Shown here: piece by piece, positions 16,013-64,000 of the stretch
How positions within the stretch are numbered: position 1 is the stretch's first letter
Layout: every line of letters starts with the position of its first letter
NCBI GenBank assembly: GCA_963700925.1
Contig: OY969553.1
Coordinates: forward strand, 3,417,631 to 3,481,630
Origin: an uncultured Actinomycetota bacterium
GTDB lineage: Bacteria; Actinomycetota; Actinomycetes; Actinomycetales; CAWJMD01
DNA length: 64,000 nt
Reading direction: 5' to 3'
The notes under the pieces: generated by a model
Told to the model about the DNA's origin: nothing
Seen by the model: only the letters and a program-made list of their open reading frames with translations
Database searches by the model: none
Made by a program: the position numbers and the translations under genes

Positions 16013-16089
16013 CGCGGGGTGGAGCAGCTCGGTAGCTCGCTGGGCTCATAACCCAGAGGTCGCAGGTTCAAATCCTGCCCCCGCTACCA
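16013..16089 (+). tRNA. initiator tRNA-Met (anticodon CAU)
   Basis: Cloverleaf folded by eye. Acceptor is CGCGGGG/CCCCGCU with a C1:U72 mismatch. D arm is GAGC-AGCUCGGUA-GCUC. Anticodon arm is CUGGG-CUCAUAA-CCCAG, with three consecutive G:C pairs next to the loop (initiator hallmark). T arm is GCAGG-UUCAAAU-CCUGC, with encoded ACCA. Confidence 0.95.
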
Positions 16090-29023: not shown

Positions 29024-29311
29024 TCAGAGCGGAGCGTCGGCGCCGCCGGCGGGTGCCTTGTCCATGTAGCGTTCAACCCAGTACGGCGTGGGTACCTCCG
29101 CGGGTGCCTCGTGCTCCATGTAGCGCTGAACCCAGTGGGGCGTGGGCACCTCGGCCGCGGGCGCCGGCACCTCTTGCGAGAAGCCGGTTTTGGTCGCATC
29201 GGCGACCGCCACGACGGCCAGCGCGGCCAGCACGAACGCGGTCGCGATCGCGACGACGATGGCAACCGGCGGCAGGTGGTAACGGCCGGCGGAGATGGTG
29301 TTGACGGACAT
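29024..29311 (-). CDS. small N-terminally anchored membrane protein with two tandem W/Y-rich repeats
   Basis: Track ORF of 95 aa. A strong SD (GGAAGGAG) lies 8 nt upstream. The TM helix is PPVAIVVAIATAFVLAALAVVAV. The repeats are AEVPTPHWVQRYMEHEAP and AEVPTPYWVERYMDKAP. Confidence 0.6.
   Translation of the reverse strand: MSVNTISAGRYHLPPVAIVVAIATAFVLAALAVVAVADATKTGFSQEVPAPAAEVPTPHWVQRYMEHEAPAEVPTPYWVERYMDKAPAGGADAPL
29052..29158. repeat. two tandem ~51/54-bp coding repeats
   Basis: GGTGCCTTGTCCATGTAGCGTTCAACCCAGTACGGCGTGGGTACCTC... versus GGTGCCTCGTGCTCCATGTAGCGCTGAACCCAGTGGGGCGTGGGCACCTC... Confidence 0.8.
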
Positions 29312-41175: not shown

Positions 41176-41303
41176 CACCAAGCCATGGCCGGTGGATCGG
41201 GCGAACCGCCATGCCGGTGCGCCGCTATCGTCGGTGGGCGCTGCCAGACTCCAAGGGACGGCCCGACGGAGGGGCAGCGAGTTCGACCGGGAGGGCGTGG
41301 CGC

Positions 41304-44300: not shown

Positions 44301-44681
44301 TCGCGGCTGCGTGGGCCGACGGCCGAGCGGGCCAACGAGATCCTGCTGGACATGGTGCGCATCCGTGACCTCGGCCTACGGGTGCCGCTGCCGCTGCCCG
44401 TCAAGACGACCGAGGCCTACGCCTTCCAGCGGTGGAAGCAGCGCCCTCCGGCGAGCGCGCTCTACAAGGCAGGCAGCGAGTGGGCGAGCACGTTCGGCTT
44501 TGACAAGGAGGATCGTGCCGCCGAGCACGTGAGGGTGTGGGGTGGCGTGCTGCCACTCGCCGAGCTCGTGAAATGGCAAGCGCCCGAACGCATTCCCGCC
44601 TACGCCGACGAGGGTGACGACTTCGGCCGCCTCGCGTGCCGGCTGTGGTGGGACCTGTTCGAGCACGAGGAGCTGCTGTGA
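41304..44681 (+). CDS. recC: exodeoxyribonuclease V gamma subunit
   Basis: Track ORF 41211..44681, with the start preferred at GTG 41304 (VLEVHRSESGLSLVSALADLL). It is ~1125 aa and is followed by recB with a GTGA overlap. Confidence 0.9.
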   Translation: MLEVHRSESGLSLVSALADLLAVPPADPFTPDVVAVPAQGIERWLAQRLSHRLGVGSDLGVDSVPGAESEADGVCAHVLFPRPQALLDDAVSAVSDEHAASVQAWEPARTVWVLVDLLEQVASGALAASDTSFDLLRHHLKQGHAVPTGRRYSLARRVAGLLHAYAASRPQVLRDWQAGDVSGVPGDLRWQPELWRLLRAELGPSPAELLDDACTLLRTRPDAVRLPERFSLYGPSRIDAARLDVLVALAQHRNVHLWLNHASPALWQQVSALAPRSDLRRRPAERVPGNALLASLSRDVQELQERLAAVAPDLTSTHHPPPPVPSTSLLGRLLVDLRDASPPGAPLVMDTGDRSVQVHACHGRARQVEVLRDVVLGLLADDPTLEPRDVLVMCPDVETFAPLVTAAFGTEPAARLRVRLADRSPRQVNPVLAVVGTLLELVAGRVTASALLALAGAPPVRRRFRLDEEDLEQLRAWTVDSGAHWGLDGPHRNAWKMGAIGSGTWRVAMDRVLSGVALGGSDQPVGGVLPLDGIDSGAVDLAGRFAELVDRVHAGVEALGRDQGLADWLAAVEHVTLSLVDVGFDDAWQLVQLRSELGEIRDAAEASASPLSLADVRTMLDLQLQGRPTRSSFRSGGLTVCTLVPMRSVPHRVVCLLGMDDLSFPRRSRPDGDDLLAREPHLGERDPRSEDRQLFLDAITAVTERLVVVYQGAHERTGAPLPPAVPVGELLDAIDACATTADGRPARQQVVVRHPLQPFDPRNFTPGELGRPSPLAFDRAALDGARSSRGPRESRPPFIAGTLPAIPLEDVVELSLLRSFLKNPANGFLRQRLEVADPWEVEQLADSLPVELDGLGKWKIGESVLAARMRGLDAATVRAAELARGALPPDPLGDPVLQEVGPVAEDLLHRALRWREDGSGNPLPVEAVDVDVRLAGDRHVVGSISGLRAQTLLRVSYSRLAANHRLEAWIDLVVLAAQKPETAWEAAVVGRGTGKAIAVSRLRGPTAERANEILLDMVRIRDLGLRVPLPLPVKTTEAYAFQRWKQRPPASALYKAGSEWASTFGFDKEDRAAEHVRVWGGVLPLAELVKWQAPERIPAYADEGDDFGRLACRLWWDLFEHEELL

Positions 44682-47600
44682 GCGGGGCAGTGCGCGTCGA
44701 CGCGCCCATGGACCTGACCGCCGCCCTTCCGTCCGGCACCAGCGTGCTGGAGGCCAGCGCCGGCACGGGCAAGACGTTCACCATCGCCGGTCTCGTGACG
44801 CGTTACGTCGCCGAGGGGCACGCCCGCATCGACCAGGTGCTCGCGGTGACGTTCGGTGTCGCTGCCACCAGCGAGCTGCGCACGAGGGTCCGCGAGCGGC
44901 TCGTGCTGGTGCGCGACGCACTCGGTGACCCTGAGGCCGCGCGAGCCCATCACGACCCCGTCGTCGTCCATCTGGCCGGCGCCGACGACGCGGAGGTCGC
45001 GCTCCGGCGCGGGCGGCTCGTCACGGCCCTCGCCGACTTCGACTCCGCCACGGTGGCGACCGTGCACGAGTTCTGCCAGCAGGTGCTGAGTGGCCTAGGC
45101 ATCGCTGCCGACACCGACCCGCACGTGCAGCTGGTCGAGAGCCTCTCCGACGTGGTCGACGACGTCGTCGAGGACCTCTACCTGCGACACGCCACGCGTC
45201 CGGGCACCGACCGAAGCGCGCTGACGGCCAAGCAGGCCTTCTCGCTCGCCCGCGTCGCCGTCGACGACCGCCACGCCACTCTGCTGCCGGAACCCACTGC
45301 GGTGGAACGAGACTCGGCTCCCGACCTGCGACGGCGCTACGCCCAGGCCGTCCGCGACGAGCTCGAGCGCCGCACCCGGGCGGCCCGCGTGCTGGGCTTC
45401 GACGACCTGCTGGTCCGCGTTCGTGACGCGCTCGCTGACCCGGTCTCCGGCCCGGTCGCGTGCGAGCGCCTGCGCTCCAGGTTCCGGGTGGTCCTCGTCG
45501 ACGAGTTCCAGGACACCGACCCCGTGCAGTGGGACGTTCTCCGGCTGGCCTTCCACGGTCACTGCACGCTCGTCGTCATCGGCGACCCGAAGCAGGCCAT
45601 CTACGCCTTCCGGGGTGCGGACGTCCGCGCGTACCTGCAGGCCGCCGACGCAGCCGACCACCGGGCCACGCTCGCAACGAACTGGCGCAGCGACCCGCGC
45701 CTCCTGCTGGGGCTCGGCGCGATGTTCCGCCGGGCGGCGCTGGGCGACCCACGCATCGTGGTCCGCCCGGTGAGCGCCGGGTACACGACGCCCCTGCTGG
45801 GACCCCGCGTAGACCGGTCGCCTGTGCGGATCCGTCAGCTGCGCCGTGACGGGCACGAGGTCACCAAGTCGGGCGGACTACCTGTCGAGACCGCCAGGAG
45901 GCTGGTCGCCACCGACGCTGCAACCCAGGTGGCCCGGTTCCTGGCGGAGGGCCTCGAGGTCACCCCTCGGGGCACGACCACCCCGCGTCCCCTGGTCGCC
46001 CGTGACGTCGCCGTCCTCGTCCGCACCCAGAAGCAGGCCGACGCGGTCCGCGAAGAGCTGCTCGCCGTCGGGGTTCCGTGCGTGTTCACCGGCACCAAGA
46101 GCGTCTTCGGGACGGAGGCGGCAAGCGACTGGGTCGTGCTCCTGGAGGGGCTGGAACAGCCGCACCGCAGCGGGCCGGTGCGGCGCGCGGCGCTCACCTC
46201 GCTGATGGGGTGGACGGCGAGCCGCGTCGACGAGCGCGGAGCGGAAGGCAACGACGAGCTCGGCATGATGCTGCGCGACTGGGCAGACGTCCTGGCCGAA
46301 GACGGTGTGGCGGCCCTGTTCTCGCGGATCAGCCATGACCAGGGGCTTGCCGAGCGACTGCTGCACCGAACGGACGGCGAGCGCGTGCTCACCGACCTGC
46401 GGCACGTGGCCGAGGCCCTGCACGAGGTCGCCCTCCGCGAGCAGCTGACGCTCCCCGGGCTGCTGACGTGGCTGCGCGAGCAGGTCGCGCAGGCCGCGGT
46501 CGACCAGGACCAGGAACGCTCCCGGCGCCTCGACACCGACGCCGCGGCGGTCCAGGTGGGCACGGTCCACACCAGCAAGGGGCTCGAGTTCCCTGTCGTT
46601 CTGGTGCCTTTCGGCTGGGACGTCTCCTTCGGCGGTCGCAACACCGAGCGCTTCCCGCGCGCCCACGACGAAACCGGTCACCGCACCGTCCACGTCGGCG
46701 GCCCCGGTTCGCCCGGGTACGACGCCGCGCTCGCGGTCGAGGCGGAGGACGATGCGGGCGAGGAGCTTCGACTGCTCTACGTTGCATCCACACGCGCTAT
46801 CTCGCGCCTGGTGCTCTGGTGGGCGCCGACCTTCAACACCGAGCGCTCGCCTCTGCACCGACTGCTGTGGGCCGAAGACCCCTCTCAGGCGCTGCCGCTG
46901 CAGGTGGCCGTGCCCCCTGACGACGAGGTGCATGACCGACTGCAGCGGCTGGGCGCAGCCGGCGAGGGCCTCGCGGTCGAGGTGGTGAGTGGTGACCCCG
47001 CTCCGAAGGACGGTGGCGCCAAAGGCGTTGAGCCGGAGGCCGACCTAGCCATGTCCGTGCTCGACCGGACGCTCGACGAGGCATGGAGCCGCACGTCGTA
47101 CTCGGGGCTGACCCGAGCTGCCCATGAGGTCGTCGCGCCAGTTCAGTCCGAGCCCGACGTTCGCCTGACCGACGACGAGGGCCAGGAGGCTGTCGCTGAC
47201 CCCGACCTGGAGGGACTGGTGCGGGTGGCTCCGGCGCCGCCACCCAGCACCGACCCGGACGCCCAGTTGCTGGACGTCCCCTCACCGATGGCGGACCTGC
47301 CCGGGGGAGCGGCCTTCGGCACGCTCGTGCACGGCGTGCTGGAGCGGGCCGACCTCTCCACCGGTGACACGCTGAGCGCACTCGTGCAGGCAGCCGAAGT
47401 TGAGATGCGGTGGCGCGCAGAGGGTTTGACACCTCAGGTCCTGGCCGAAGCACTGCTGCCCGCCGTGACGACGCCATGGGGGGCGGTCGCTGACGGCAGG
47501 TCGCTCGCCGACTTCCGTTCGGGCGACCTGCTCCCCGAGCTGGAGTTCGAGCTGCCGCTCGCCGGTGGCGACCTGCCGAGGGCGACGCGCCCGACACGCC

Positions 47601-48112
47601 TCGGCCAGCTGGCCGGTCTCCTGCGTGACCACCTGCCGGAGAGCGACCCGGTGCACCGCTACGCCGACATGCTCGCCGGCCCGGTGCTCGCGTCGCAGCC
47701 TCTGCGCGGCTACCTCACCGGCTCACTCGACCTCGTCGCTCGGGTGGGCGGTCCCGCGTCCCCGCGCTACCTGGTCGTCGACCACAAGACGAACCGTCTC
47801 TCCGAACCCGATCAGCCGCTCACCGCCTGGCACTACCGCCGCTCCGCGCTCGACGACGCCGTGCTGCACGCGCACTACCCGCTGCAGGCGATGCTGTACT
47901 GCGTTGCGCTGCACCGCTTCCTGAGATGGCGGCAGCCGGGATACGACCCGGACGTGCACCTCGGTGGCGTCGTGTACCTCTTCCTTCGCGGGATGTGTGG
48001 CGACGCCGTGGAGCCCCGGTCCGACGGCTTCGTGCCGGGCGTCTGGATCTGGCAGCCGCCGTCCCCCCTCGTGCTGGCTCTGTCGCGCCTGCTGGCGGGT
48101 GATGGCCGATGA
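44678..48112 (+). CDS. recB: exodeoxyribonuclease V beta subunit (UvrD-type helicase plus PD-(D/E)xK nuclease)
   Basis: Track ORF 44636..48112, with GTG 44678. Walker A is EASAGTGKTFT. Other motifs are VDEFQDTDPVQW and the C-terminal nuclease motif LVVDHKTN. Confidence 0.9.
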   Translation: MSGAVRVDAPMDLTAALPSGTSVLEASAGTGKTFTIAGLVTRYVAEGHARIDQVLAVTFGVAATSELRTRVRERLVLVRDALGDPEAARAHHDPVVVHLAGADDAEVALRRGRLVTALADFDSATVATVHEFCQQVLSGLGIAADTDPHVQLVESLSDVVDDVVEDLYLRHATRPGTDRSALTAKQAFSLARVAVDDRHATLLPEPTAVERDSAPDLRRRYAQAVRDELERRTRAARVLGFDDLLVRVRDALADPVSGPVACERLRSRFRVVLVDEFQDTDPVQWDVLRLAFHGHCTLVVIGDPKQAIYAFRGADVRAYLQAADAADHRATLATNWRSDPRLLLGLGAMFRRAALGDPRIVVRPVSAGYTTPLLGPRVDRSPVRIRQLRRDGHEVTKSGGLPVETARRLVATDAATQVARFLAEGLEVTPRGTTTPRPLVARDVAVLVRTQKQADAVREELLAVGVPCVFTGTKSVFGTEAASDWVVLLEGLEQPHRSGPVRRAALTSLMGWTASRVDERGAEGNDELGMMLRDWADVLAEDGVAALFSRISHDQGLAERLLHRTDGERVLTDLRHVAEALHEVALREQLTLPGLLTWLREQVAQAAVDQDQERSRRLDTDAAAVQVGTVHTSKGLEFPVVLVPFGWDVSFGGRNTERFPRAHDETGHRTVHVGGPGSPGYDAALAVEAEDDAGEELRLLYVASTRAISRLVLWWAPTFNTERSPLHRLLWAEDPSQALPLQVAVPPDDEVHDRLQRLGAAGEGLAVEVVSGDPAPKDGGAKGVEPEADLAMSVLDRTLDEAWSRTSYSGLTRAAHEVVAPVQSEPDVRLTDDEGQEAVADPDLEGLVRVAPAPPPSTDPDAQLLDVPSPMADLPGGAAFGTLVHGVLERADLSTGDTLSALVQAAEVEMRWRAEGLTPQVLAEALLPAVTTPWGAVADGRSLADFRSGDLLPELEFELPLAGGDLPRATRPTRLGQLAGLLRDHLPESDPVHRYADMLAGPVLASQPLRGYLTGSLDLVARVGGPASPRYLVVDHKTNRLSEPDQPLTAWHYRRSALDDAVLHAHYPLQAMLYCVALHRFLRWRQPGYDPDVHLGGVVYLFLRGMCGDAVEPRSDGFVPGVWIWQPPSPLVLALSRLLAGDGR

Positions 48113-49992
48113 CCACCACGGCAGGGGCGTCGGGCATCGGTCAGATCGACCTGTCGGCGCGGGTCGCGCTGCGGGCCACCGGTCTGCTGCGCACCTTCAC
48201 CGATGCCGGCGTGCTGCACGCCGCCGACGTGCACGTCGCCGCGCGCCTCGCGCACCTGTGCGGGGAGAGTGACGAGACAGCGGTGCTGGCCGCCGCGCTC
48301 GCCGTGCGAGGCGTTCGGCACGGCTCCGTCATGCTGCGTCTCGCCGACGTCGCCACGACCGTGGTGGCAGACGATGCCGACCCCGAGCGGGCCATCGAGG
48401 GCGAGCTGCCGTGGCCGCCCGCCGACCAGTGGCTGGCCGCCGTCCGCTCGAGTCGGCTCGTGCTCGTGGACGGGGAACCAGAGACACCTGGCGACGAGGC
48501 GCGGCCGCTGCGGATGTGGGGCGACGACCTCTGGCTAGATCGCTACTGGCACATGGAGTCCCGCGTCGCCGACGACCTCCTGATGCGCGCCGCGAACCCC
48601 CCTGTCGTCGATGAGTCGCGCCTTGACAGGGTGCTGTCGCGGCTCTGGCCTGTCCCCGCAGTTGGGGTGGACATCGACCTCGACCAGCGCGAGGCCGCTC
48701 GTATCTGCCTGCACTCCGGCGTCGCCGTGCTCGGAGGCGGTCCGGGAACGGGCAAGACGACCACGGTGGCCCGCGTGCTCGCGGCTCTGCGTGAGCTGGC
48801 GGAGCCGGGGCCTCCACCGCGCATCGCGCTCGCGGCCCCGTCGGCCAAGGCGCGCAACCGCATCCAGGAGTCGCTCGGGCTGGCAGCGCACGACCCGACG
48901 CTCACGCCGGAGGACCGGCAGCTGCTCGCCGCCGTCCCGGCGTCCACGCTGCACAAGCTGATCGGCGCCTACCCCTCGGGCACGCGCTCGCGGTATCGCG
49001 CCGCTAACCCGCTGCCCTACGACGTGGTCGTGCTCGACGAGACCTCGATGGTGTCGCTGTCGATGTTCCACCGGCTGCTCGACGCGCTGCGGCCGCACGC
49101 GCGGCTTGTGCTGGTGGGCGACCCCGACCAGCTGGCCTCGGTGGAGGCCGGTGCGGTGCTGTCGGACCTCGACGCGATCGCCGGCCTAGGGTCGGTCGGC
49201 AGAGGCGTCGCGCGGCTGGTCACCAACCGACGCTCCGGCGACCAGCCTGCGCTCACGGCGCTGGCCGCTGCCGTCCGCGAGGGTGATGCCGATGCCGTCG
49301 TCGAGGTGCTCGGTCAGGGCGTGCCCGGCGTCGTGTGGCACGAGGTGGCCGACGACCAGCCCCTGCCCGCAAGCGTTTTGGGGGAGGTGCGTCACCGGAT
49401 GCTCGCCGTCACGCGGGTGACCGGTCCGGCGGCACGGTCCGGCGACGCCGCCAGCGCGGTGGCGGCGCTCGATCGGCATCGGCTGCTGTGCGCGCACCGG
49501 CGAGGTCCGCGCGGGGTGGCGTACTGGAACGCGCTGGTGCAGCGGTGGGTGGTCGACGACGACCCCGAAGCACTGGTGCGGCGCGACGGCCGCTACCCGG
49601 GACTCCCGCTGCTCGTCACGGAGAACGACTACGAGAACCAGCTGTGGAACGGGGACACCGGGGTCGTCGTGGCCGGTTCGGCCGCCGGGACCCTGGAGGT
49701 CGTCATCGGCCGAGGCACGGTGCTGACCGCTCCGATCCCCCTCGGGCGGCTGTCAGCGGCGTCGGCCATGCACGCGATGACCGTCTACAAGAGCCAAGGT
49801 TCGGAGTTCGACGCCGTGACACTGCTTCTGCCGCTGGCCGACTCGCCACTCGCCACGCGAGAGACCCTCTACACCGCAGTCACGCGTGCGCGGTCCGAGG
49901 TCTTCGTCGTCGGGTCTGAGGCGGCGGTGCGGGCCTGCGTCAGTCGGCGGGCCTTGCGGGCAACAGGGCTCGGACGGCGACTGGCGCCCTAG
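48109..49992 (+). CDS. recD: exodeoxyribonuclease V alpha subunit
   Basis: Track ORF of 627 aa with an ATGA overlap with recB. Motifs are GGGPGTGKTT, VVLDETSMV and TVYKSQGSEFD. Confidence 0.9.
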   Translation: MTTTAGASGIGQIDLSARVALRATGLLRTFTDAGVLHAADVHVAARLAHLCGESDETAVLAAALAVRGVRHGSVMLRLADVATTVVADDADPERAIEGELPWPPADQWLAAVRSSRLVLVDGEPETPGDEARPLRMWGDDLWLDRYWHMESRVADDLLMRAANPPVVDESRLDRVLSRLWPVPAVGVDIDLDQREAARICLHSGVAVLGGGPGTGKTTTVARVLAALRELAEPGPPPRIALAAPSAKARNRIQESLGLAAHDPTLTPEDRQLLAAVPASTLHKLIGAYPSGTRSRYRAANPLPYDVVVLDETSMVSLSMFHRLLDALRPHARLVLVGDPDQLASVEAGAVLSDLDAIAGLGSVGRGVARLVTNRRSGDQPALTALAAAVREGDADAVVEVLGQGVPGVVWHEVADDQPLPASVLGEVRHRMLAVTRVTGPAARSGDAASAVAALDRHRLLCAHRRGPRGVAYWNALVQRWVVDDDPEALVRRDGRYPGLPLLVTENDYENQLWNGDTGVVVAGSAAGTLEVVIGRGTVLTAPIPLGRLSAASAMHAMTVYKSQGSEFDAVTLLLPLADSPLATRETLYTAVTRARSEVFVVGSEAAVRACVSRRALRATGLGRRLAP

Positions 49993-49997: not shown

Positions 49998-50009
49998 CAG
50001 ACCCCTCTT

Positions 50010-50146
50010 GCCCATCGCTGGCTGACCGCTCTCGCCCCAATCGTTGGCTGACCGCTTTCGCCCCCATCGTTGGCCTCGTTAACGAGGCGAACGCACCGTT
50101 AACGAGGCTCGCAAGCCTCGTGAAGGTGCACGGAGCCTCGTGAAGT
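50010..50146. repeat. nested short repeats and palindromes
   Basis: There are 2.5 tandem ~25-bp units GCCC(C)ATCG(C/T)TGGCTGACCGCT(C/T)TC. There is a perfect 16-bp palindrome GCCTCGTTAACGAGGC, GTTAACGAGGC twice, the hairpin GAGGC-TCGCAA-GCCTC, and GCCTCGTGAAG twice. Confidence 0.8.
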
Positions 50147-50260: not shown

Positions 50261-51769
50261 ATGTCGATCACCGAAGAGCGCGGGCGGCACGATGTGCTGG
50301 CCGGGATCGGCATGGTCCGTCAGGGCCTGGACCTGCTGCTCGGCGCGGACGGACGGGCGTGGTCACTGACCGACGCCCAGGTCCATGACGCGATCGTTGA
50401 CCTGAGCGTGCAGGCCAACCGGCTGGAGGCCGCCCGCCTGTCTTTGGTGCGGGCTTCGGTGGCGCGTGAGGACGACCCGAACGCGCCGCGGGCGACGGTG
50501 CAGGTGCTCAAGCGTCGGTGCCGGCAGACCGGCGGGCGATCCCGTGCCGACATCGACAACGCCGCCCTGACCTGCCCCACCTCCGGGACGCTGCGATCCC
50601 TGGGTGCGGCGCTGGCCCAGGGAGCGGTGACTCCCGCGCATGTCGATGTGGCCCGTCGGTGCCTGACCCGGATCCCCACCAGGCTGGTGACGGCACACCG
50701 CGAGCTGGTCGACGCCGAGCTGACCCGCCGCGCCCGCGACTGGGACAGCGGCACCGCCGAACACCTCGCAGCCCACCTGCTGTCGCGGATCGCCCCACAC
50801 GCCTCCGACCGGTACGACCCCGAGGCCCTGCACCGCCGCCAGCTCGCCACCGCCACCGACTCCACCGGGATGCTGCTGATCCGCGGCCAGCTCGACCCAG
50901 CCGGCGGCGCCAAGGTCCGCTCCGTGCTGGACCACCTGTCCAACCTCAACCGGCACCTCCCCACCCCCGACCACACCGCAACCGACCCCACCGACCAGAC
51001 CGACCAGACCGAGCTGGTCGTGCCGGACCTGCGCACCCTGGGCCAACGACGCGCCGACGCCCTGGTCACGATGGCCGCGCTCGCCGCAGAGCAGCTGAAC
51101 CTGACCACCGACCCCGAAACCGGCCACCACACCCATGGCCTGCGCCCGGCTAGGGCGGTCCCGCGGATCGTCGTCCAGACCACCCCGGACCAGCTGGCCT
51201 CAAGCCCAGCCAACGCTGCGGGTGACGACGCGGGCCCCGGTGGCTGCACGTACTCAGACGGTGGTCTTCTCGACCCAGGCACCCTGCAGCGACTGGCCTG
51301 CGACGCCGTCATCGACCGGGTGCTCCTGTCCCCGACCGGACGCGTCCTGCGGATGGACACCCTGGGCCGGCTCGCCACCGAGGCCCAGCTCACCGCGCTG
51401 GCCACCCGAGACGGCGGCTGCGTCTGGCCCGGCTGCGCTGCGCCGGCGTCGATCTGCGAAGCGCACCACATCACCTGGTGGTCACGCGGCGGCAAAACCG
51501 TGATCGAGAACCTCGCCCTGCTCTGTCCCGTCCACCACACCCGCATCCACGCCGAACCCGACGACCGAACCGGCTGGCACATCACCATCCAAGACGGCAT
51601 CCCCTGGTTCATCCCACCCGACCACGCCGACCCCCACCGAACACCCGTCCGCAACACCCTGCGCGACGCCGTCCACGACACCAGACGCGTCGGCGACCAA
51701 CTCCGCCTCACCCTCAACGACACCTGGGCATGGACCACGGCCCTCGATCCGCCGCAGCCCAACAGCTGA
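50261..51769 (+). CDS. HNH endonuclease with N-terminal DUF222 domain (13E12-repeat family)
   Basis: Track ORF of 502 aa. The HNH motif is DGGCVWPGCAAPASICEAHHITWWSRGGKTVIENLALLCPVHHTRIH. Confidence 0.9.
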   Translation: MSITEERGRHDVLAGIGMVRQGLDLLLGADGRAWSLTDAQVHDAIVDLSVQANRLEAARLSLVRASVAREDDPNAPRATVQVLKRRCRQTGGRSRADIDNAALTCPTSGTLRSLGAALAQGAVTPAHVDVARRCLTRIPTRLVTAHRELVDAELTRRARDWDSGTAEHLAAHLLSRIAPHASDRYDPEALHRRQLATATDSTGMLLIRGQLDPAGGAKVRSVLDHLSNLNRHLPTPDHTATDPTDQTDQTELVVPDLRTLGQRRADALVTMAALAAEQLNLTTDPETGHHTHGLRPARAVPRIVVQTTPDQLASSPANAAGDDAGPGGCTYSDGGLLDPGTLQRLACDAVIDRVLLSPTGRVLRMDTLGRLATEAQLTALATRDGGCVWPGCAAPASICEAHHITWWSRGGKTVIENLALLCPVHHTRIHAEPDDRTGWHITIQDGIPWFIPPDHADPHRTPVRNTLRDAVHDTRRVGDQLRLTLNDTWAWTTALDPPQPNS

Positions 51770-55801: not shown

Positions 55802-56253
55802 CTGTGACGGCCGGCCGCGAGCTGACCCGTATCGCGATCTCCGCGACGCTGCACTGCCTGACAGGGTGCGCCATCGGTGAGGTCCTGGGCATGGTGATCG
55901 GCACGGCTCTCGGCTGGGGTGACGTCGCCACCATCGCGCTCGCCGTCGTGCTGGCCTTCTTCTTCGGGTACGCGCTCACGATGCGCCCTGTGCTGCGCTC
56001 GGGACTGTCTCTGCGACAGGCGGTTCGGGTGGCTCTCGCGGCTGACACGGTCTCGATCCTCGTGATGGAGATCGTGGACAACGCCGTCCTCTTGGCTGTC
56101 CCAGGAGCGATGGAGGCGGGTCTGACCACCTGGCTGTTCTGGGGCAGCCTGGCGTTCTCGCTCGGCGTCGCCTTCGTGGTGACGGTTCCGGTGAACCGCT
56201 GGATGATCGGGCGCGGACGAGGGCACGCCGTCGTGCACGCCCACCACCACTGA
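55798..56253 (+). CDS. DUF4396-like membrane protein
   Basis: Track ORF of 151 aa with a GTGA overlap with copZ. It has LHCLTGCAIGEVLG and a C-terminal HAVVHAHHH. Confidence 0.7.
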   Translation: MTVTAGRELTRIAISATLHCLTGCAIGEVLGMVIGTALGWGDVATIALAVVLAFFFGYALTMRPVLRSGLSLRQAVRVALAADTVSILVMEIVDNAVLLAVPGAMEAGLTTWLFWGSLAFSLGVAFVVTVPVNRWMIGRGRGHAVVHAHHH

Positions 56254-56334
56254 GCGGCAGGCTGGCCTCCGCGCTCCCAGCGTCCGCGCGCAATCGATTC
56301 GGCCCCAGCGACCTCCGTCCGCGAGGATGCGCCT

Positions 56335-57756
56335 GTGATCCTCACCGTGAGCACCACCCGTCGGCCGGCCACCGACCTGGGCTACCTGCTGCACAAGCAC
56401 CCCGGTCGGCCGCAGTCGTTCGAGGTCGCGATGGGTACGGCTCACGTGTTCTACCCGCAGGCGGACGACGACGTCTGCACCGCCGCGCTGATGCTCGAGG
56501 TTGACCCGGTAGGTCTAGTGCGCGGGCGCAAAGGGACTGCCGCCGAGGGGTTCTCGCTCGGGCAGTACGTGAACGACCGTCCGTACGCAGCGTCCAGCTT
56601 GCTCTCTGTCGCCCTGGGTCGGGTCTTCCGCACCGCCCTCGCCGGCCGCTGCGACGCCCGTCCCGGTCTGGCCGACGAGTCCATTCCGCTGCGCATCCAC
56701 GTGCCCGTGCTGCCGGCTCGTCCCGGTGGTCCGGACCTGGTGAGGCGGCTCTTCGAACCGCTGGGGTGGCAGGTCGACGCCCGGCCGGTGGCGCTGGACC
56801 CGACGCGCCCCGACTGGGGCGACTCCCGCTACGTGGACCTGCGTCTCGAGGGCACGATGCAGCTCTCGCAGGCGCTGCGGCACCTGTACGTCCTGCTGCC
56901 AGTGCTCGACGACGCCAAGCACTACTGGGTCAGCCCCGACGAGGTCGACAAGCTGATCCGGGCAGGAACGGGCTGGCTCGCCGAACACCCCGACGCCGAG
57001 CTGATCGCGCGGCGCTACCTCGCCCACCGCACGAGCCTGACGCGGTCGTTCCTCGACCGGCTCGCCGAGGTCGACGACACCGAGCCCGGGCGTATCGACA
57101 ACGCCGACGAGGCGCCTCTGGTCGGCGACGAGCCGGACCGACCGGTACCGCTCGCAGTCCAGCGCCGCGGGGCCGTCCTCGCCGCCTTGCACGCCGCGCA
57201 CGCCGGCACGGTCGCCGACCTGGGCTGCGGCGAGGGTGCCCTGCTGGAGCCGATGCTGGGCGACCCGACATTCACCAGGATTGTCGGCACCGACGTCTCG
57301 GCGCGGACCCTCCAGTCCGCGACCAGGCGCCTTCGTCTGGATCGCATGCCCGAGCCGAAGAGGGCGCGGCTCGAGCTGTTCCAGAGCTCGCTGACCTACA
57401 CCGACGCGCGGCTGACCGGTCTCGACGCGGCCGTGCTGATGGAGGTCGTCGAGCACGTCGACGAGCACCGGCTTCCGGCTCTCGAGCGGAGCGTCTTCGG
57501 AGCCGCGCGACCCGGAACGGTCGTCGTGACCACGCCGAACGCCGAGTACAACGTGCGGTTCGAGAGTCTGCCCGAGGGCACGATGAGGCACCGTGACCAC
57601 CGGTTCGAGTGGACGCGGTCGCAGTTCGCCGAGTGGGCCTGGCGCGTGGCAGAGGCGCACCGCTACTCCGTGCGGTTCCTGCCCGTCGGCGACGACGACC
57701 CTGAGCTGGGCCCGCCCACTCAGATGGCCGTCTTCACCAGGGAGGGGGCGCGATGA
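56335..57756 (+). CDS. hen1: 3'-terminal RNA ribose 2'-O-methyltransferase Hen1
   Basis: Track ORF of 473 aa. The N-terminus MILTVSTTRRPATDLGYLLHKHPGRPQSF is the bacterial Hen1 signature. The C-terminal MTase is VADLGCGEGALL...VLMEVVEHVDEHRL. Confidence 0.85.
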   Translation: MILTVSTTRRPATDLGYLLHKHPGRPQSFEVAMGTAHVFYPQADDDVCTAALMLEVDPVGLVRGRKGTAAEGFSLGQYVNDRPYAASSLLSVALGRVFRTALAGRCDARPGLADESIPLRIHVPVLPARPGGPDLVRRLFEPLGWQVDARPVALDPTRPDWGDSRYVDLRLEGTMQLSQALRHLYVLLPVLDDAKHYWVSPDEVDKLIRAGTGWLAEHPDAELIARRYLAHRTSLTRSFLDRLAEVDDTEPGRIDNADEAPLVGDEPDRPVPLAVQRRGAVLAALHAAHAGTVADLGCGEGALLEPMLGDPTFTRIVGTDVSARTLQSATRRLRLDRMPEPKRARLELFQSSLTYTDARLTGLDAAVLMEVVEHVDEHRLPALERSVFGAARPGTVVVTTPNAEYNVRFESLPEGTMRHRDHRFEWTRSQFAEWAWRVAEAHRYSVRFLPVGDDDPELGPPTQMAVFTREGAR

Positions 57757-60350
57757 CGGAGCTCTCGGTCCCGGATCTCAGCCTGGTCGTGCTGGTGGGA
57801 GTCAGCGGCTCGGGCAAGTCGACGTTCGCGCGCACCCACTTCTCGTCCACCGAGGTGCTGTCGAGCGACACGTTCCGCGGAATGGTCGCGGACGACGAGA
57901 ACGACCAGGCCGCAACGACTGACGCGTTCGACGTGCTGCACTACGTGGCGGGCAAGCGCCTGGCCGCGGGGCGGCTCACGGTCGTGGACGCGACCAACGT
58001 GCAGCAGTCCGCCCGCAAGTCGCTCGTCGACGTGGCGCGCGAGCATGACGTGCTGCCGGTGGCGATCGTGATCGACCTGCCCGAAAAGGTCTGTGCTGCA
58101 CGCAATGCGAGCCGGCCCGACCGTGACTTCGGCCCGCACGTGATCCGCCGCCAACGCGACCAGCTGCGACGTGGGCTGCGCGGCCTGCAGCGCGAGGGCT
58201 TCCGCACCGTCCACGTGCTGCGCTCGGAGGAGGAGGTCGCCGCGGCGACGGTCGTACGAGCGCGGCTCTACAACGACCTGCGTCACGTGAGCGGCCCCTT
58301 CGACGTGATCGGCGACGTGCACGGCTGCCGGGGCGAGCTGGTGACGCTGTTGCAGAAGCTCGGGTACGCCGTGCGGTTCGACGAGCAGGACCACGCGGTC
58401 GGGGCGCACCACCCTGCCGGGCGGACAGCTGTGTTCGTCGGCGACCTGGTCGACCGCGGGCCCGACACGCCGGGGGTGCTCCGTCTGGTGAAGAACATGG
58501 TCGAGAGCTCGGATGCGCTCTGCGTGATGGGAAACCACGAGAACAAGCTGTTGCGCGCGCTGCGAGGCCGCAACGTGCAGGTGACGCACGGCCTGGCGGA
58601 GTCGCTCGCCCAGCTGGGCGAGCAGCCGGACGGGTTCCGGGAAGAGGTCGAGGGTTTCGTCGACGGTCTGCTCTCGCACTACGTGCTCGACGAGGGGCGG
58701 CTGGTGGTGTGCCACGCCGGCCTCCCCGAGCGGTACCACGGGCGGGCGTCCGGACGGGTGCGCCAGTTTGCGATGTACGGCCAGACGACGGGGGAGACGG
58801 ACGAGTTCGGGCTGCCCGTCCGCTACCCGTGGGCCGAGGACTACCGGGGTCAGGCGACTGTGCTGTACGGGCACACCCCAGTGCCTCGCGCGGAGTGGGT
58901 GAACAACACGATGTGCCTCGACACCGGGGCCGTGTTCGGTGGGCACCTGACCGCGTTGCGCTACCCCGAGCGTGAGCTGGTCACCGTCCCCGCCGAGCGG
59001 GTGCACTACGAACCAACAAAGCCGTTCCCGGCGAACCCGACTGCAGAACAAGATGTTTCGACGGCGAGCCACCGCGAGCCCGACCTTCTCGACATCACCG
59101 ATGTGACGGGGAAGCGGGTGATCGAGACACGACACCACGGTCGGGTCGGCGTGCGAGAGGAGAACGGGGCCGCTGCGCTGGAGGTGATGAGCAGGTTCGC
59201 CGTCGACCCGCGCTGGCTGCTCTACCTGCCGCCGACGATGAGCCCTGTCGCCACCTCGTCCGCCGAGGGCCTGCTCGAGCACCCCGCGCAGGCGTTCGAG
59301 GCCTACCGCGCCGACGGTGTCGACCGCGTCGTGTGCGAGGAGAAGCACATGGGCTCGCGGGCCGTGGCGCTCGTCTGCCGTGACCGCCGTACCGCGCTGG
59401 AGCGGTTCGGAGCACCCGGCGACGCCCACGGGGCGGTGTGGACGCGGACAGGTCGCCCCTTCTTCGACAGGCCGACCACGATGCTGCTGCTCGACCGGCT
59501 TCGCACGGCTGCCGAGCGGGCCGGACTCTTCGACGAGCTCGGGTCGGGCTGGCTGCTGTTCGACGCGGAGATCATGCCGTGGAGCGCCAAGGCTGAGGAA
59601 CTGCTCCGTCACCAGTACGCCGCGGTCGGTGCGGCGGCCAGAACGGCTCTGCCGGTGGCGGTCTCGCTGCTCGACCAGGCAGTCTCCGCCACGCCCGACG
59701 TGACCGGGCCCGACGTCGCCGGTCTCGATCTGAGTGCTCTGGCTGAACGAACCCGGTCGAGGCACGCCAACGCCCTCGCGTTCGACGACGCCTACCGACG
59801 CTACTGCTGGCCGGTCGACGGGCTGGACGGGGTGCAGATGGCCGTGTTCAACGTGCTGGCGGCGGAGGGAGCCACGTTCCACGACCGTCCGCACGACTGG
59901 CACCTGTCCGTCGCCGATCGCCTGGTCGAGGCCGACCCTGCCTTGATGCGCCGTACCGACCGACTGGTGGTCGACACCACCGACGTCGCGTCGACCGACG
60001 AGGCCACGCGGTGGTGGGAGCGGCTCACGGCCGGCGGCGGGGAGGGCATGGTGGTCAAGCCGCTCGCCAACCTGGTGCGAGGCCCGCGAGGCCTGGTGCA
60101 GCCTGGCCTCAAGGTCCGCGGACGCGAGTACCTGCGGATCATCTACGGTCCCGACTACACCGAGCCCGAGCACTTCGTGCGGCTGCGGCAGCGAGGTCTT
60201 GGTCACAAGCGGTCGATGGCCGCTCGTGAGTACGCCTTGGGGCTGGAGGCGCTCGACCGCGCCGCGCGTGGTGAACCACTCTGGCGGGTGCACGAGTGCG
60301 TGTTCGCCGTCCTCGCCTGCGAGTCGGAGCCGGTCGACCCTCGGCTCTAG
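57753..60350 (+). CDS. pnkp: polynucleotide kinase-phosphatase (kinase + calcineurin-type phosphatase + ligase-like adenylyltransferase)
   Basis: Track ORF of 865 aa with an ATGA overlap with hen1. The P-loop is GVSGSGKST. The phosphatase motifs are GDVHGC, GDLVDRGP and GNHE. The ligase-type lysine motif is CEEKHMGSRAV. Confidence 0.9.
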   Translation: MTELSVPDLSLVVLVGVSGSGKSTFARTHFSSTEVLSSDTFRGMVADDENDQAATTDAFDVLHYVAGKRLAAGRLTVVDATNVQQSARKSLVDVAREHDVLPVAIVIDLPEKVCAARNASRPDRDFGPHVIRRQRDQLRRGLRGLQREGFRTVHVLRSEEEVAAATVVRARLYNDLRHVSGPFDVIGDVHGCRGELVTLLQKLGYAVRFDEQDHAVGAHHPAGRTAVFVGDLVDRGPDTPGVLRLVKNMVESSDALCVMGNHENKLLRALRGRNVQVTHGLAESLAQLGEQPDGFREEVEGFVDGLLSHYVLDEGRLVVCHAGLPERYHGRASGRVRQFAMYGQTTGETDEFGLPVRYPWAEDYRGQATVLYGHTPVPRAEWVNNTMCLDTGAVFGGHLTALRYPERELVTVPAERVHYEPTKPFPANPTAEQDVSTASHREPDLLDITDVTGKRVIETRHHGRVGVREENGAAALEVMSRFAVDPRWLLYLPPTMSPVATSSAEGLLEHPAQAFEAYRADGVDRVVCEEKHMGSRAVALVCRDRRTALERFGAPGDAHGAVWTRTGRPFFDRPTTMLLLDRLRTAAERAGLFDELGSGWLLFDAEIMPWSAKAEELLRHQYAAVGAAARTALPVAVSLLDQAVSATPDVTGPDVAGLDLSALAERTRSRHANALAFDDAYRRYCWPVDGLDGVQMAVFNVLAAEGATFHDRPHDWHLSVADRLVEADPALMRRTDRLVVDTTDVASTDEATRWWERLTAGGGEGMVVKPLANLVRGPRGLVQPGLKVRGREYLRIIYGPDYTEPEHFVRLRQRGLGHKRSMAAREYALGLEALDRAARGEPLWRVHECVFAVLACESEPVDPRL

Positions 60351-60557
60351 GGGACGGGGGTGGAATCGGGGGGGCTCGTGCGCTGTTACCCTTGACCAGC
60401 GACGGCGTTCCTGCCGTCCAACTCCCGCGGGCGAGCTGCCCGCGAGGTCGCTCCTCTGAAACACACCTCGAGCGCAACAGCGCTCCACGGTGGCCTGCCG
60501 CCCCAGGTAGGCCCCGTCCAGGTTGCGGCCGTTCTACCGCAACGGAGTCGTTGTCGA

Positions 60558-62078
60558 ATGCCTCAGCACGCCCAGTACCAGCACGCCCAACGCCCGCAGT
60601 CAGGGTCCCGTCGCCAGCCACGCCGCAGCACGGGCCGTCCGCAGGGTCGCCCACAGGGCCGCTCGCAGCGCCGTCCCTCCGTCGACCCGGCGACCGCCGC
60701 ACTCGACGCAGCGCTGAACGCCGCCGTCGAGAGCCCCGTGATGGGGGACCTCACATTCGCCGAGCTCGGCCTCCCCGACCGGCTCGTCGACGCGCTCGCC
60801 CACGCGGGTATCGAGCGCCCGTTCGCGATCCAAACCCGCACTCTTCCGGACGGTCTCGCCGGACGTGACGTCCTCGGCCGCGCGCAGACCGGGTCAGGCA
60901 AGACGCTCGGTTTCGGCCTGCCGATGCTGGCTCGCCTCGCCGGCGGTCGCCGCACCACCAAGCAGCCCCGTGGCCTCGTGCTGGTTCCTACCCGCGAGCT
61001 CGCCCAGCAGGTCGCCACCGCCCTCGTGCCCCTGGCGCGGAGCCTGTCGCTCAAGGTCAGCACGGTTTACGGCGGTGCCCCCATCGGCCGTCAGATCGCC
61101 GAGCTGGAGCGCGGTGTCGACATCGTCGTCGCCACGCCCGGGCGACTGATCGACCTGATGGAGCGGCGCAGCGCCGACCTCGGACGGGTCGAGATCACCG
61201 TCCTGGACGAGGCTGACTACATGGCCGACCTCGGCTTCATGCCGGCCGTGACGCAGATCCTCGACACCACACCCGAGGGCGGGCAGCGGATGCTGTTCTC
61301 CGCCACGCTCGACCGCGGTGTCGGCCAGCTGGTCACCCGCTACCTCACCGACCCCGCGATCCACGCCGTTGCGGCCGCTGCGTCGCAGATCGACACCATG
61401 GACCATGTGGTGTTCACGGTGAGCGCCCAGGACAAGATCGCCGTGGCCACCGAGGTCGCGCAGCGTCCGGGACGCACCCTGTTCTTCGTCCGCACCAAGT
61501 TCGGCGCCGATCGCCTCGCCCAGCAGATGGGCCGAGATGGCGTGCCCGCCAGCGCGATCCACGGCAACCTGACCCAGGGAGCGCGTCAGCGCGCGCTCGC
61601 CGCGTTCACTGCGGGACACCCCCGGGTCTTGGTCGCCACCGACGTGGCTGCCCGCGGCATCCACGTCGACGACGTCGACCTCGTCGTGCACTTCGACCCC
61701 CCGAACGACCACAAGGACTACCTGCACCGCTCGGGTCGCACCGCCCGTGCCGGCAGCTCCGGCACCGTGGTGTCGCTCGTCCAGCCCGCGCAGCTGCGCG
61801 AGGTCGCCCGGCTGCACCAGGGCGCCAAGGTCAGCGCTCGCACCACGTCGGTGGTGCCTGGTCACGCGGACGTTCGCGAGATCGCCACGTCGGGAACGCC
61901 TGTCGTCGTCCAGCCGATGCCGAAGGAGACTGCGGAGTCACGCCGAGGGCGCTACCCGAGTCGCCAGGGCCGTGGCCAGGGTTCGCGTGGCCAGGGTGGG
62001 CGCCGTCAGGGTGGCTACCAGGGCAGCACCGGGCGCCGGGCCCAGGGCGGTCCGAGCCGCGGAGCGCGCTCGGCCTGA
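60558..62078 (+). CDS. DEAD-box ATP-dependent RNA helicase with basic N- and C-terminal tails
   Basis: Track ORF of 506 aa. Motifs are the Q motif TFAELGL...PFAIQ, AQTGSGKT, VLDEADYM, SAT and HRSGRTARAG. The C-terminal tail is RGG-rich. Confidence 0.9.
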   Translation: MPQHAQYQHAQRPQSGSRRQPRRSTGRPQGRPQGRSQRRPSVDPATAALDAALNAAVESPVMGDLTFAELGLPDRLVDALAHAGIERPFAIQTRTLPDGLAGRDVLGRAQTGSGKTLGFGLPMLARLAGGRRTTKQPRGLVLVPTRELAQQVATALVPLARSLSLKVSTVYGGAPIGRQIAELERGVDIVVATPGRLIDLMERRSADLGRVEITVLDEADYMADLGFMPAVTQILDTTPEGGQRMLFSATLDRGVGQLVTRYLTDPAIHAVAAAASQIDTMDHVVFTVSAQDKIAVATEVAQRPGRTLFFVRTKFGADRLAQQMGRDGVPASAIHGNLTQGARQRALAAFTAGHPRVLVATDVAARGIHVDDVDLVVHFDPPNDHKDYLHRSGRTARAGSSGTVVSLVQPAQLREVARLHQGAKVSARTTSVVPGHADVREIATSGTPVVVQPMPKETAESRRGRYPSRQGRGQGSRGQGGRRQGGYQGSTGRRAQGGPSRGARSA

Positions 62079-62090
62079 CACGCCTCACAG

Positions 62091-62136
62091 AACGACGGAG
62101 GGGCGCGGACCACTCGGTCCGGGCCCCTCTGTCGTT
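62091..62136. terminator. long hairpin between convergent helicase and small membrane protein genes
   Basis: AACGACGGAGGGGC-GCGGACC-ACTC-GGTCCG-GGCCCCTCTGTCGTT, followed by CTTTGG. Confidence 0.6.
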
Positions 62137-62175
62137 CTTTGGCGCGTGGCCGGTCAGGCCAGCGTCACGCCGCCG

Positions 62176-62334
62176 TCAGAACCAGTGCTTGCGGCCACCG
62201 ATGGCGCGCCCGGTCGAGCCGAGCAGGAACAGCACAGCGCCGATCACGACCAGCACGATGCCGATCGTTAACAGGATGCTGAGGCTGTCGACCAGCAGGC
62301 CGATGATGATCAGGATGATGCCCAGGACGATCAT
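62176..62334 (-). CDS. 52-aa two-TM hydrophobic protein
   Basis: Below the track cutoff. AAGGAG lies 6 nt upstream. The sequence is MIVLGIILIIIGLLVDSLSILLTIGIVLVVIGAVLFLLGSTGRAIGGRKHWF*. Confidence 0.65.
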   Translation of the reverse strand: MIVLGIILIIIGLLVDSLSILLTIGIVLVVIGAVLFLLGSTGRAIGGRKHWF

Positions 62335-62450
62335 GAAGACTCCTTGGGATAGGCGGGCGGTACTGCACAGTCCTCCCCGAAGGACGGTCCTGATTGTCGC
62401 GCGGGACAGGGGATAGCGCGCGGCGAAAGACCGTCCGGCATGATCAGCGC

Positions 62451-63105
62451 ATGGCCGACCGCAGCACGACCCGAGACGTGCCCCTGCACGTGAGAGTCGG
62501 CAACCGGCTGCTCGAGGGCGCAGAGACCGTCGTGTACGTGGGAATCGCCGCGCTGTTGCTCCTGACGGCGGGCGGGCTGCTCGTGGGATCGGCCAGGCGA
62601 CTACCCGGCGTCATCGGCGACGGGAAGGGCGAGAGCGAAGCCGTGGCTCTGGAGCTGCTCGACTCGCTCCTGTTGGTGTTCATCGTGGTCGAGCTGCTCT
62701 ACGCGGTCCGCATGACCATCGCGAAGCGCGAGCTGGTGGCGGAGCCGTTCCTCCTGGTCGGCATCATCGCCTCGATCAAGGAGATCGTGGTGCTCTCGGT
62801 CAAGGCCGCCGAGGAGGTCGGCAAGGGCAACGTTTTCGACGACTCGCTGGCCGAGATCGGAGTTCTGGGCGTGCTCGTGCTGCTGCTCGGCGCCACGGCA
62901 TTCATGCTGCGGCGCAAGGAACGTGAACCCGGTGAGGGTGACGACAGCGGCAATCCCTACACCAGTGACAGGGACGCCGTGGCAGACACGTCAGCAGACA
63001 AGTCAGCAGACAAGTCAGAGACCAGACAAGTCATCAGACAAGTCATCAGACAAGTCATCAGACAAGTCAGCAGAGGACGCCGAGACCGAGGACGACCGCG
63101 TGTGA
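62451..63105 (+). pseudogene. PsiE-like (phosphate-starvation-inducible family) membrane protein, frame broken inside a 12-bp tandem repeat
   Basis: From ATG 62451 the frame reads MADRSTT...LDSLLLVFIVVELLYAVRMTIAKRELVAEPFLLVGIIASIKEIVVL... The natural-looking end (...[27 protein letters not shown] with TGA 63103..63105) is in the +1 frame, reached only after the irregular repeat unit at 63014..63029. Confidence 0.55.
62990..63075. repeat. 12-bp tandem repeat GTCA(G/T)CAGACAA, about 7 units, one irregular 16-nt unit
   Basis: The units start at 62990, 63002, 63014 (16 nt, GTCAGAGACCAGACAA), 63030, 63042, 63054 and 63066 (partial). Confidence 0.9.
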
Positions 63106-63989
63106 CAGGGACGCTGAGAGCCTCGCGCGCCGACCTCGGCCTGGCCGGCGCCGTGATGGCGTGGATCGCGATGGTGCTGTGGGTCGACCGCAGCGGGCCG
63201 ATGGCAGAGCAGGTGGCCATGGGCGCACTGACGTGGGGCGTGCTGGCACTGGCGCTGCGCCGGGAGAGCCCGCTCGTGAGGGCCCAGACCCTGGTCGTGG
63301 TGGTGCTGGCGACGGCCGTCGAGTACACGTTCTCCCCTCTGCTGGAGGCGTACACCTACCGGCTCGACACGGTGCCGGCGTACGTGCCGCCCGGTCACGG
63401 CCTCGTGTACCTCGCGGCGATGTCGCTCGGCCGGTCTGACCTCTTCGAGGCTCACCGCAGACGGCTGGTGGCCGCGGCGCTCGTGCTCGGTGGGGGTTGG
63501 GCGCTGTACGGCGTCACACTGGCCGAACGGCCGGATGTGCTCGGAGCGTTCTGGTTCCTGTGCCTGGTCGGGTTCCTGTTCTGGGGACGCTCGCAGCTGC
63601 TGTACGTGGGCGCGTTCGTGGTGGTGAGCTGGCTCGAGCTGCTCGGAACCGCCTGGGGCACATGGTCGTGGGCGCCCTACGACCCGGTCGCCGGCATCGT
63701 GAGTCAGGGCAACCCCCCGTCAGGCGCCGCCGGCGGGTACGGATGGTTCGACCTCTACGCCTTGCTGCTGGCGCCTTTGCTGCTGTCGCGGCTGAGCAGG
63801 CTCAAGGTGGCGGCGTGCAGATGGCCGTTGGTAGCCAAGGCGTTTCCGCCGAAGGGTCCGTCGACGCCGTCCAGCGACGTGAACCTGCCGCCCGCCTCGG
63901 TGACGATCGGCACCAGCGCCGCCATGTCGTGCACAGCCAGCTCTGGCTCGGCGGCGATGTCCACGGCTCCCTCGGCGACGAGCACGTAG
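63102..63989 (+). CDS. hypothetical integral membrane protein
   Basis: GTG 63102 overlaps the +1-frame TGA at 63103..63105 (GTGA). The protein has multiple TM segments ([47 protein letters not shown]...). Its last ~235 nt run antisense through the next gene, so the 3' end is doubtful. Confidence 0.45.
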
Positions 63990-64000
63990 GACCAGAAGTC
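63755..64000 (-). CDS. inositol monophosphatase family protein (HisN-like), C-terminal part
   Basis: Track ORF 63755..63985. The gene continues past the window end. The sequence reads [40 protein letters not shown]... Confidence 0.7.

Follow-up and report, generated by a model that had tools for sequence, protein, structure and literature searches.

A 16-nt unit in the 12-nt coding repeat of an actinobacterial PsiE-family gene, probably an assembly artefact at a copy-number-variable array

The window analysed here (a 64,000-nt stretch of contig OY969553.1 from an uncultured Actinomycetota bacterium) ends in a PsiE-family membrane protein gene, a second membrane protein gene and the 3' end of a convergent inositol-monophosphatase (IMPase) gene. 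As assembled, the two membrane protein genes share one open reading frame, which results from an odd unit in a tandem repeat near the end of the first gene. The features of the locus are the following:

62451..63018, + strand: 5' part of the PsiE-family membrane protein gene, in frame 0, with an ATG start, a match to Pfam PF06146, four hydrophobic helices and, after them, an acidic tail of low complexity
62990..63077, + strand: 12-nt tandem array GTCA(G/T)CAGACAA (Tandem Repeats Finder), in the proper frame encoding (SADK)n(SSDK)n in the PsiE tail
63019..63022, + strand: extra AGAC in the third unit of the array (63014-63029), absent from an otherwise identical second assembly (L085)
63023..63105, + strand: true 3' end of the PsiE-family gene, read in the +1 frame, with stop TGA 63103-63105, recognized by a C-terminus like that of relatives and by codon log-odds
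63088..63092, + strand: Shine-Dalgarno-like GAGGA, from reading of the sequence, 9 nt upstream of the downstream GTG and within the last PsiE codons
63102..63989, + strand: gene for a conserved multi-helix membrane protein of 295 aa, whose GTG start overlaps the PsiE stop as GTGA; homologues cover this part only
63755..64000, - strand: 3' end of a convergent inositol-monophosphatase-family gene that runs off the window (Pfam PF00459, Inositol_P, E=1.6e-9 on an 81-aa fragment)

Judged by its domain match, the upstream gene product can be assigned to the PsiE family. The PF06146 profile is matched at aa 29-157 with 44 bits against a cutoff of 23.9 (E=2.9e-11), the alignment spans profile positions 7-121 of 122, and the homologues of the protein carry a precomputed PF06146 domain. 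The protein is 87% identical to homologue P0121 and 81% identical to P0122. Four transmembrane segments (aa 27-45, 65-83, 99-117 and 135-153) are predicted by a hydropathy scan, which is a crude method. E. coli psiE is listed as phosphate-starvation-inducible, as a member of the Pho regulon (PMC2648988). The N-terminal 180 aa of the window's PsiE are undamaged (87% identity to P0121), and secondary lesions were not seen anywhere across the gene.

The tail of this gene holds the tandem array, which has a 12-nt consensus unit, GTCA(G/T)CAGACAA, and whose first unit begins at 62990. Tandem Repeats Finder reports the array at 62982-63074 with a period of 12, 7.4 copies and a score of 122, the top score among the short-period arrays (period of at most 27 nt) of the 64-kb window; it is surpassed only by a 54-nt repeat of 2.2 copies at 29034-29152 (score 150). 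By direct reading, the first two units (62990-63001 and 63002-63013) are GTCAGCAGACAA, the third (63014-63029) is GTCAGAGACCAGACAA and has 16 nt, three consecutive GTCATCAGACAA units follow at 63030-63065, and from 63066 on the array continues with a partial unit. It is the extra AGAC at 63019-63022 that lengthens unit 3 to 16 nt and marks the frameshift point, since this is the sole 4-nt removal that gives back a canonical unit. AGAC corresponds to four contiguous letters of the repeat unit (positions 7-10) and duplicates neither of its flanks (TCAG and CAGA). Not being a tandem duplication, it is not a product of simple slippage or duplication, and a true small insertion does not usually look like this. 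The coordinates that a preliminary description of this DNA gave for the array, its units and the stops proved exact on re-reading, and parsing of the units reproduces its 16-nt third unit and the +1 shift within the array.

Frame 0 is open from 62394 to 63989 and, from the ATG at 62451, yields an ORF of 531 aa. Across the array it reads SADK SADK SE-TRQ(VIRQ)3 and then continues into the downstream gene. The +1 frame reads DK(SSDK)3 and stops at TGA 63103-63105; this stop lies in the +1 frame only and overlaps the GTG at 63102-63104 as GTGA. GC3 is uninformative within the array because of its local AT-richness, and codon log-odds were used instead. Downstream of the odd unit they amount to +7.3 bits for the +1 frame, -13.6 for frame 0 and -16.1 for the +2 frame. 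The frame-0 linker uses codons that are very rare in the codon usage of the window (AGA 1.9 and CAA 2.1 per 1000), four rare AGA codons fall in frame 0, and the linker is basic (19 K+R versus 13 D+E). Deleting AGAC in silico restores an intact PsiE of 216 aa that ends in ...DDRV*. Plots of GC3 phase and codon usage by frame proved too noisy for counting further frameshifts in the window, and a direct comparison of two assemblies was used in their place.

Taken at face value, the assembled sequence would represent a recent 4-nt insertion in the genome itself, a reading we regard as possible but doubtful. PsiE would then lose its native C-terminus and its stop and be read through into the downstream gene, resulting either in a PsiE-linker-membrane protein fusion or in a damaged PsiE with loss of termination-reinitiation coupling, and GAGGA/GTG would still allow separate synthesis of the downstream protein. 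The even number of predicted PsiE helices (four) and the basic character of the new linker would suit such a fusion. The very rare codons of the frame-0 linker, the lack of secondary lesions across the PsiE gene and the fact that AGAC is no tandem duplication of its flanks all speak against a genuine insertion.

Comparison with orthologous loci points to the +1 frame. The C-termini of related PsiE proteins read ...DEDAEREDERV* (L004), ...EGEREDERV* (P0121), ...KSADTEDDRV* (P0123) and ...AAETEDERV* (P0241), and the +1-frame C-terminus of the window's protein matches these ...EDERV*/TEDDRV* endings. Nine distinct close loci with both genes present were compared (L002-L006, L011, L026, L029 and L034). 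All nine show the GTGA junction between the PsiE stop and the downstream GTG, and in all nine the downstream gene lies one frame behind PsiE; in the window both genes are in the same frame, which equals a net +1 shift. A fused PsiE-plus-downstream gene was found in none of the nine close orthologous loci. In more distant relatives the two genes are 150-800 nt apart.

Protein searches gave the same picture. With the fused ORF as query against 5.8 billion proteins, the best 120 matches are all at most 372 aa long and cover at most 61% of the query; with PsiE as query against the same number of proteins, the best 120 matches all have at most 291 aa. Neither search holds a fused PsiE-plus-downstream homologue among its top matches, which also counts against a real insertion. 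A natural fusion of PsiE with the membrane protein was rejected, since no fused homologue with a conserved linker occurs among the top matches. The preliminary description had raised the question of a fused protein with a conserved VIRQ reading; no such homologue appears among the top matches.

Since the relatives' C-termini, the GTGA junctions, the unfused orthologues and codon usage all agree, the +1 frame is the ancestral coding frame. Its original sense and its stop at TGA 63103-63105, as already described from the letters of the window, are thus in line with both the relatives' C-termini and the codon log-odds. Our data also support two separate genes coupled via a GTGA overlap as the natural state, with the coupling read from the arrangement. 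The preliminary description had proposed just such a coupled pair, and as an arrangement the junction recurs in nine of nine close loci. GAGGA at 63088..63092 may help to start the downstream gene; similar purine-rich stretches are found at the same place in L004 and L005. With the downstream gene trailing by one frame, every +1-class indel in the tail automatically joins the two genes into one ORF. The fused ORF is therefore unremarkable in itself, a point that leaves room for a real insertion.

The array itself has a narrower distribution than the gene pair. The S(A/S)DK array is missing in all relatives that were compared by their PsiE tail (L004, P0121, P0123 and P0241), including L004 and P0241, whose downstream proteins are 93-95% identical to that of the window. 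The comparison of orthologues suggested in the preliminary description thus finds nine of nine loci unfused and no array in L004 or P0241. Because these relatives are without it, the S(A/S)DK array is a very recent expansion. An exact scan of JGI metagenomes for CAGACAAGTCAKCAGACAAGTCA gave nine matches, all of them unrelated (GC 0.35-0.63, no similarity to the locus), and thus no further copies of the array. A search with the repaired tail alone returned only P0241, with the tail of an array-less relative, and missed even the ORF of contig_14452, the second assembly treated below, so that its silence is not evidence of absence.

In one related lineage PsiE itself is degraded. L001/L002, an 85%-identical relative, has at 3687-4004 a PsiE-family gene with an in-frame deletion of about 79 aa by which helices 2-4 are lost. 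Two assemblies made from separate samples show the same deletion, and the shortened PsiE has kept both its frame and its GTGA overlap with the gene downstream. In L001/L002, translation up to the junction may matter more than PsiE itself, and PsiE may be dispensable in this clade. A real lesion in the window's PsiE would consequently not surprise, and the possibly weak selection on PsiE lends some plausibility to a true insertion. Another irregularity is seen in L005 (3552-5417; MAG MFD01275.bin.2.116), where the downstream ORF extends as far as 5417 and the alignment to IMPase breaks off at residue 224; a further frameshift, or loss of the stop, in this Nanopore MAG is the probable cause.

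The downstream protein belongs, by its homologues, to a well conserved actinobacterial membrane-protein family. The homologues have 283-372 aa, hundreds of them about 290-310 aa, and P0001 and P0002 are 95% and 93% identical to the window's protein. Invariant motifs such as VPPGHGLVY are seen in this large family (window 63102-63821, + strand). Searches with the protein gave no match in Pfam (up to E=10), in NCBIfam or among PDB sequences. An AlphaFold2 model is confident (pLDDT 85, pTM 0.85) and all-helical, and a Foldseek search with it gave no fold match (best E=0.26, TM 0.17). One homologue is labelled 'FtsH-binding integral membrane protein' (BI-1/YccA-like), which is not supported, the TM-score to YetJ being only 0.21. 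Exact-protein look-ups found neither the 295-aa protein nor the fused ORFs of 531 and 512 aa on record.

At its 3' end the downstream ORF overlaps the IMPase gene, of which full ORFs are present in relatives. The ORF's final ~78 aa lie antisense to the 3' end of IMPase (63755-63989) with shared wobble positions, and the overlap measures 235 nt in the window and 235-253 nt in the close clade. In more distant relatives the downstream gene and IMPase are convergent with a spacing of -115 to +11 nt, and the C-terminus of the membrane protein lies near aa 235-245. For L001-L003 the overlap with the downstream ORF led the gene caller to discard IMPase.

ENA ERZ25039530 contig_14452 (L085, L097), a second assembly of what is essentially the same strain, was found by exact look-up of a neighbouring helicase protein. 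Both assemblies were compared over about 26 kb (window 38109-64000), of which about 22 kb are near-identical when a divergent Hen1/Pnkp block is left aside. Outside this block there are about 16 substitutions over the ~22 kb, and all indels are located in Tandem Repeats Finder arrays, except for a +1/-1 pair at 60316/60320 at the edge of the block. The array indels comprise 1 nt at 50061, 34 nt at 50975-51004 and those of the PsiE array, and none of them is a whole number of units. Around the locus itself (window 60250-64000) the two sequences differ by two substitutions, two array indels and the compensating pair at 60316/60320, and from 60500 to 64000 indels occur inside the PsiE array only.

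In contig_14452 the AGAC is lacking and unit 3 is the canonical GTCAGCAGACAA. Its array consists of three G-type and two T-type units, a stray GA and the terminal partial unit, which makes it one unit shorter than that of the window. PsiE is out of frame here as well, at another place and into the third frame, with a 324-aa read-through from the ATG. Deletion of the GA restores an intact PsiE of 212 aa, and the two repaired alleles (216 vs 212 aa) differ by exactly one SSDK unit. A whole-unit difference is what a real variable repeat should show. A true insertion in the window, by comparison, has to face a near-identical assembly that is without AGAC and has a different out-of-frame residue, so that two non-unit indels, independent of each other, would have to be assumed at a divergence of about 0.07%. 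In favour of a true insertion, the window assembly is clean against contig_14452 outside the tandem repeats, and the neighbouring ORFs are intact.

As an arbiter, contig_14452 has its weaknesses. Hen1, Pnkp and a 502-aa repeat-bearing ORF are intact in the window and broken in contig_14452; of the two assemblies that of the window seems superior, and L085, as the less clean one, is a weak arbiter. The 9-nt repeat of the 502-aa ORF (50967-51012, TDQ-like units) is 34 nt longer in contig_14452, where the extra TDQ units are diverged and the 34-nt difference causes a frameshift. An intergenic 26-nt repeat (50000-50074) differs by one C in a C-run. In the Hen1/Pnkp block (56250-60300) the assemblies are about 10% divergent with 111 indel runs, 105 of them single-base, between identical flanks. 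The Hen1/Pnkp RNA-repair operon is intact in the window (Hen1 56335-57756, 473 aa; Pnkp 57753-60350, 865 aa). Its ORFs are fragmented in contig_14452, whose consensus is visibly rich in errors here, with Pnkp in four ORFs; this block of contig_14452 could be a different allele with a poor consensus, or a strain mix. Another sequence, L087 (Logan ERR11593888), is 100% identical to window 61715-62703 and ends 290 nt before the array.

The closest relatives come from the Microflora Danica series (ERZ25039xxx; MFD MAG titles), to which contig_14452 belongs by its accession series. Microflora Danica assemblies are Nanopore-only and were made with Flye and one round of Medaka (PMC12313526). Its near-identity to contig_14452 and the project of its relatives suggest that the window likewise derives from a Nanopore assembly. 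A passage of the Trycycler paper states that different long-read assemblies of one genome often hold different errors.

On this basis, the 16-nt unit probably, though by no means certainly, arose as an artefact of consensus building or polishing, at a coding repeat that is itself real, in frame and variable in copy number. Several observations favour this: the second assembly lacks AGAC and yet carries a different stray piece; indel differences concentrate in tandem repeats and none is a whole unit; and the PsiE gene is otherwise undecayed, with a +1 tail that ends exactly at the conserved junction. The same-strain assembly (L085) does not reproduce the 16-nt unit, and the disagreements are concentrated in tandem repeats, an error-prone class. 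Against an artefact counts that a 4-nt insertion outside a homopolymer is atypical of a random Nanopore error. The wrong version would be that of the window, and its AGAC residue would have arisen during polishing. Of the three explanations that the preliminary description had left open, a sequencing or assembly error is thus favoured by the second assembly, and a switchable site finds no support with a 12-nt unit.

Such an artefact could have arisen as follows. The reads may have contained alleles one 12-nt unit apart, or the draft may have missed a unit. A 12-nt gap can be placed at several positions in a tandem array, and with so ambiguous a position a polisher could retain only part of an extra unit; keeping 4 of its 12 columns would leave AGAC. 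The true locus would then encode a four-helix PsiE-family protein of about 216 aa with the tail (SADK)3(SSDK)3, and a separate multi-helix membrane protein from the GTG that overlaps the PsiE stop. Ribosomes finishing PsiE could re-initiate at this GTG, aided by GAGGA 9 nt upstream.

Known long-read consensus errors (Nanopore; Flye and Medaka) resemble this locus in that assemblies disagree in tandem repeats, each with a different partial-unit residue, and that removal of the residues leaves clean alleles one whole unit apart. The difference is that the window's error and its sequencing technology are known here by inference. In-frame VNTR-like coding repeats are also similar, with a 12-nt unit that encodes S(A/S)DK in a variable acidic tail and a copy number that varies by plus or minus one unit; such arrays do not normally produce a 16-nt unit like the one in the window. 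Coupled ATGA/GTGA overlap pairs share with the locus the +1-frame TGA that overlaps the GTG, as in nine of nine close loci, and the GAGGA 9 nt upstream; in the assembled frame, by contrast, the upstream ORF never reaches TGA 63103-63105.

Contingency loci, e.g. of Neisseria and Haemophilus, have repeat units not divisible by 3, and a change in copy number toggles the reading frame. The window resembles such phase variation by simple sequence repeats in that a coding repeat coincides with a change of frame and that the array varies between strains. With a 12-nt unit it lacks the defining property, and a phase-variable locus was rejected because 12 is divisible by 3. Programmed +1 frameshifting of the prfB type offers a parallel insofar as a +1 shift is needed to reach the window's conserved C-terminus; it differs by an in-frame stop and a Shine-Dalgarno stimulator, neither of which is present at the site in the window. 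A programmed +1 frameshift was rejected as well, the orthologues being single-frame and L004 and P0241 having neither array nor shift site.

A hypermutable contingency-type array, alternating between coupled, fused and truncated PsiE, or alternatively a +1 shift of the ribosome at rare AGA codons, is accordingly a highly improbable explanation. Two assemblies of one strain do show two different frames at the array, and loss of the 16-nt unit between flanking ACAAGTCA direct repeats would restore the frame. A unit of 12 nt, however, is divisible by 3, so that ordinary slippage leaves the frame unchanged, the forward +4 change is not a duplication and has no repeat-based mechanism, and the other repeat discordances (1 nt and 34 nt) resemble consensus noise. 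The four rare AGA codons in frame 0 would agree with a programmed shift, against which stand the missing slippery site and the single frame of all nine orthologous loci and all homologues examined. Were both out-of-frame versions real, a fusion/fission switch would exist in a soil actinobacterial population, a scenario that we consider barely credible. Its three states, just as hard to believe, would be (a) two coupled proteins, (b) a fused PsiE-partner protein and (c) a truncated PsiE with its partner uncoupled.

In summary of the locus proper, the frameshift itself is probably not a real feature, and what is present are three ordinary elements: a PsiE-family gene, a GTGA-coupled pair, and an in-frame coding repeat in a low-complexity tail. 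If the 16-nt unit is an artefact, in-frame coding tandem repeats in Nanopore-only metagenome assemblies can hold partial-unit residues, which create false pseudogenes and false fusions such as the 531-aa fusion here, and annotation pipelines should flag such repeat sites. If it is real, we are dealing with a recent frameshift of the ordinary kind, in a gene family whose function is unknown and which already shows decay in a related species. What remains as real biology is modest, namely the S(A/S)DK tail of a PsiE-family protein, which expanded recently and varies in copy number, and the conserved pairing, coupled via GTGA, with a membrane protein family that is uncharacterised.

Some minor observations were made at the locus and elsewhere in the window. 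Divergent from PsiE lies a hydrophobic ORF of 52 aa (window 62176-62334, - strand), whose position is kept in L001-L003 and whose counterpart in L003 has weak matches to DUF6131 and NfeD_membrane; short repeats of 12 nt and 21 nt occur within this ORF at 62302-62331 and 62218-62266, respectively. Rfam gave no RNA family at the locus, and its sole match in the window is a tRNA at 16013-16086 (+ strand, 63.6 bits). A RecC-RecB-RecD-type operon is located at window 41211-49992 (+ strand) with ORFs of 1156, 1158 and 627 aa, the Pfam assignments of which were taken from identical gene calls on L097.
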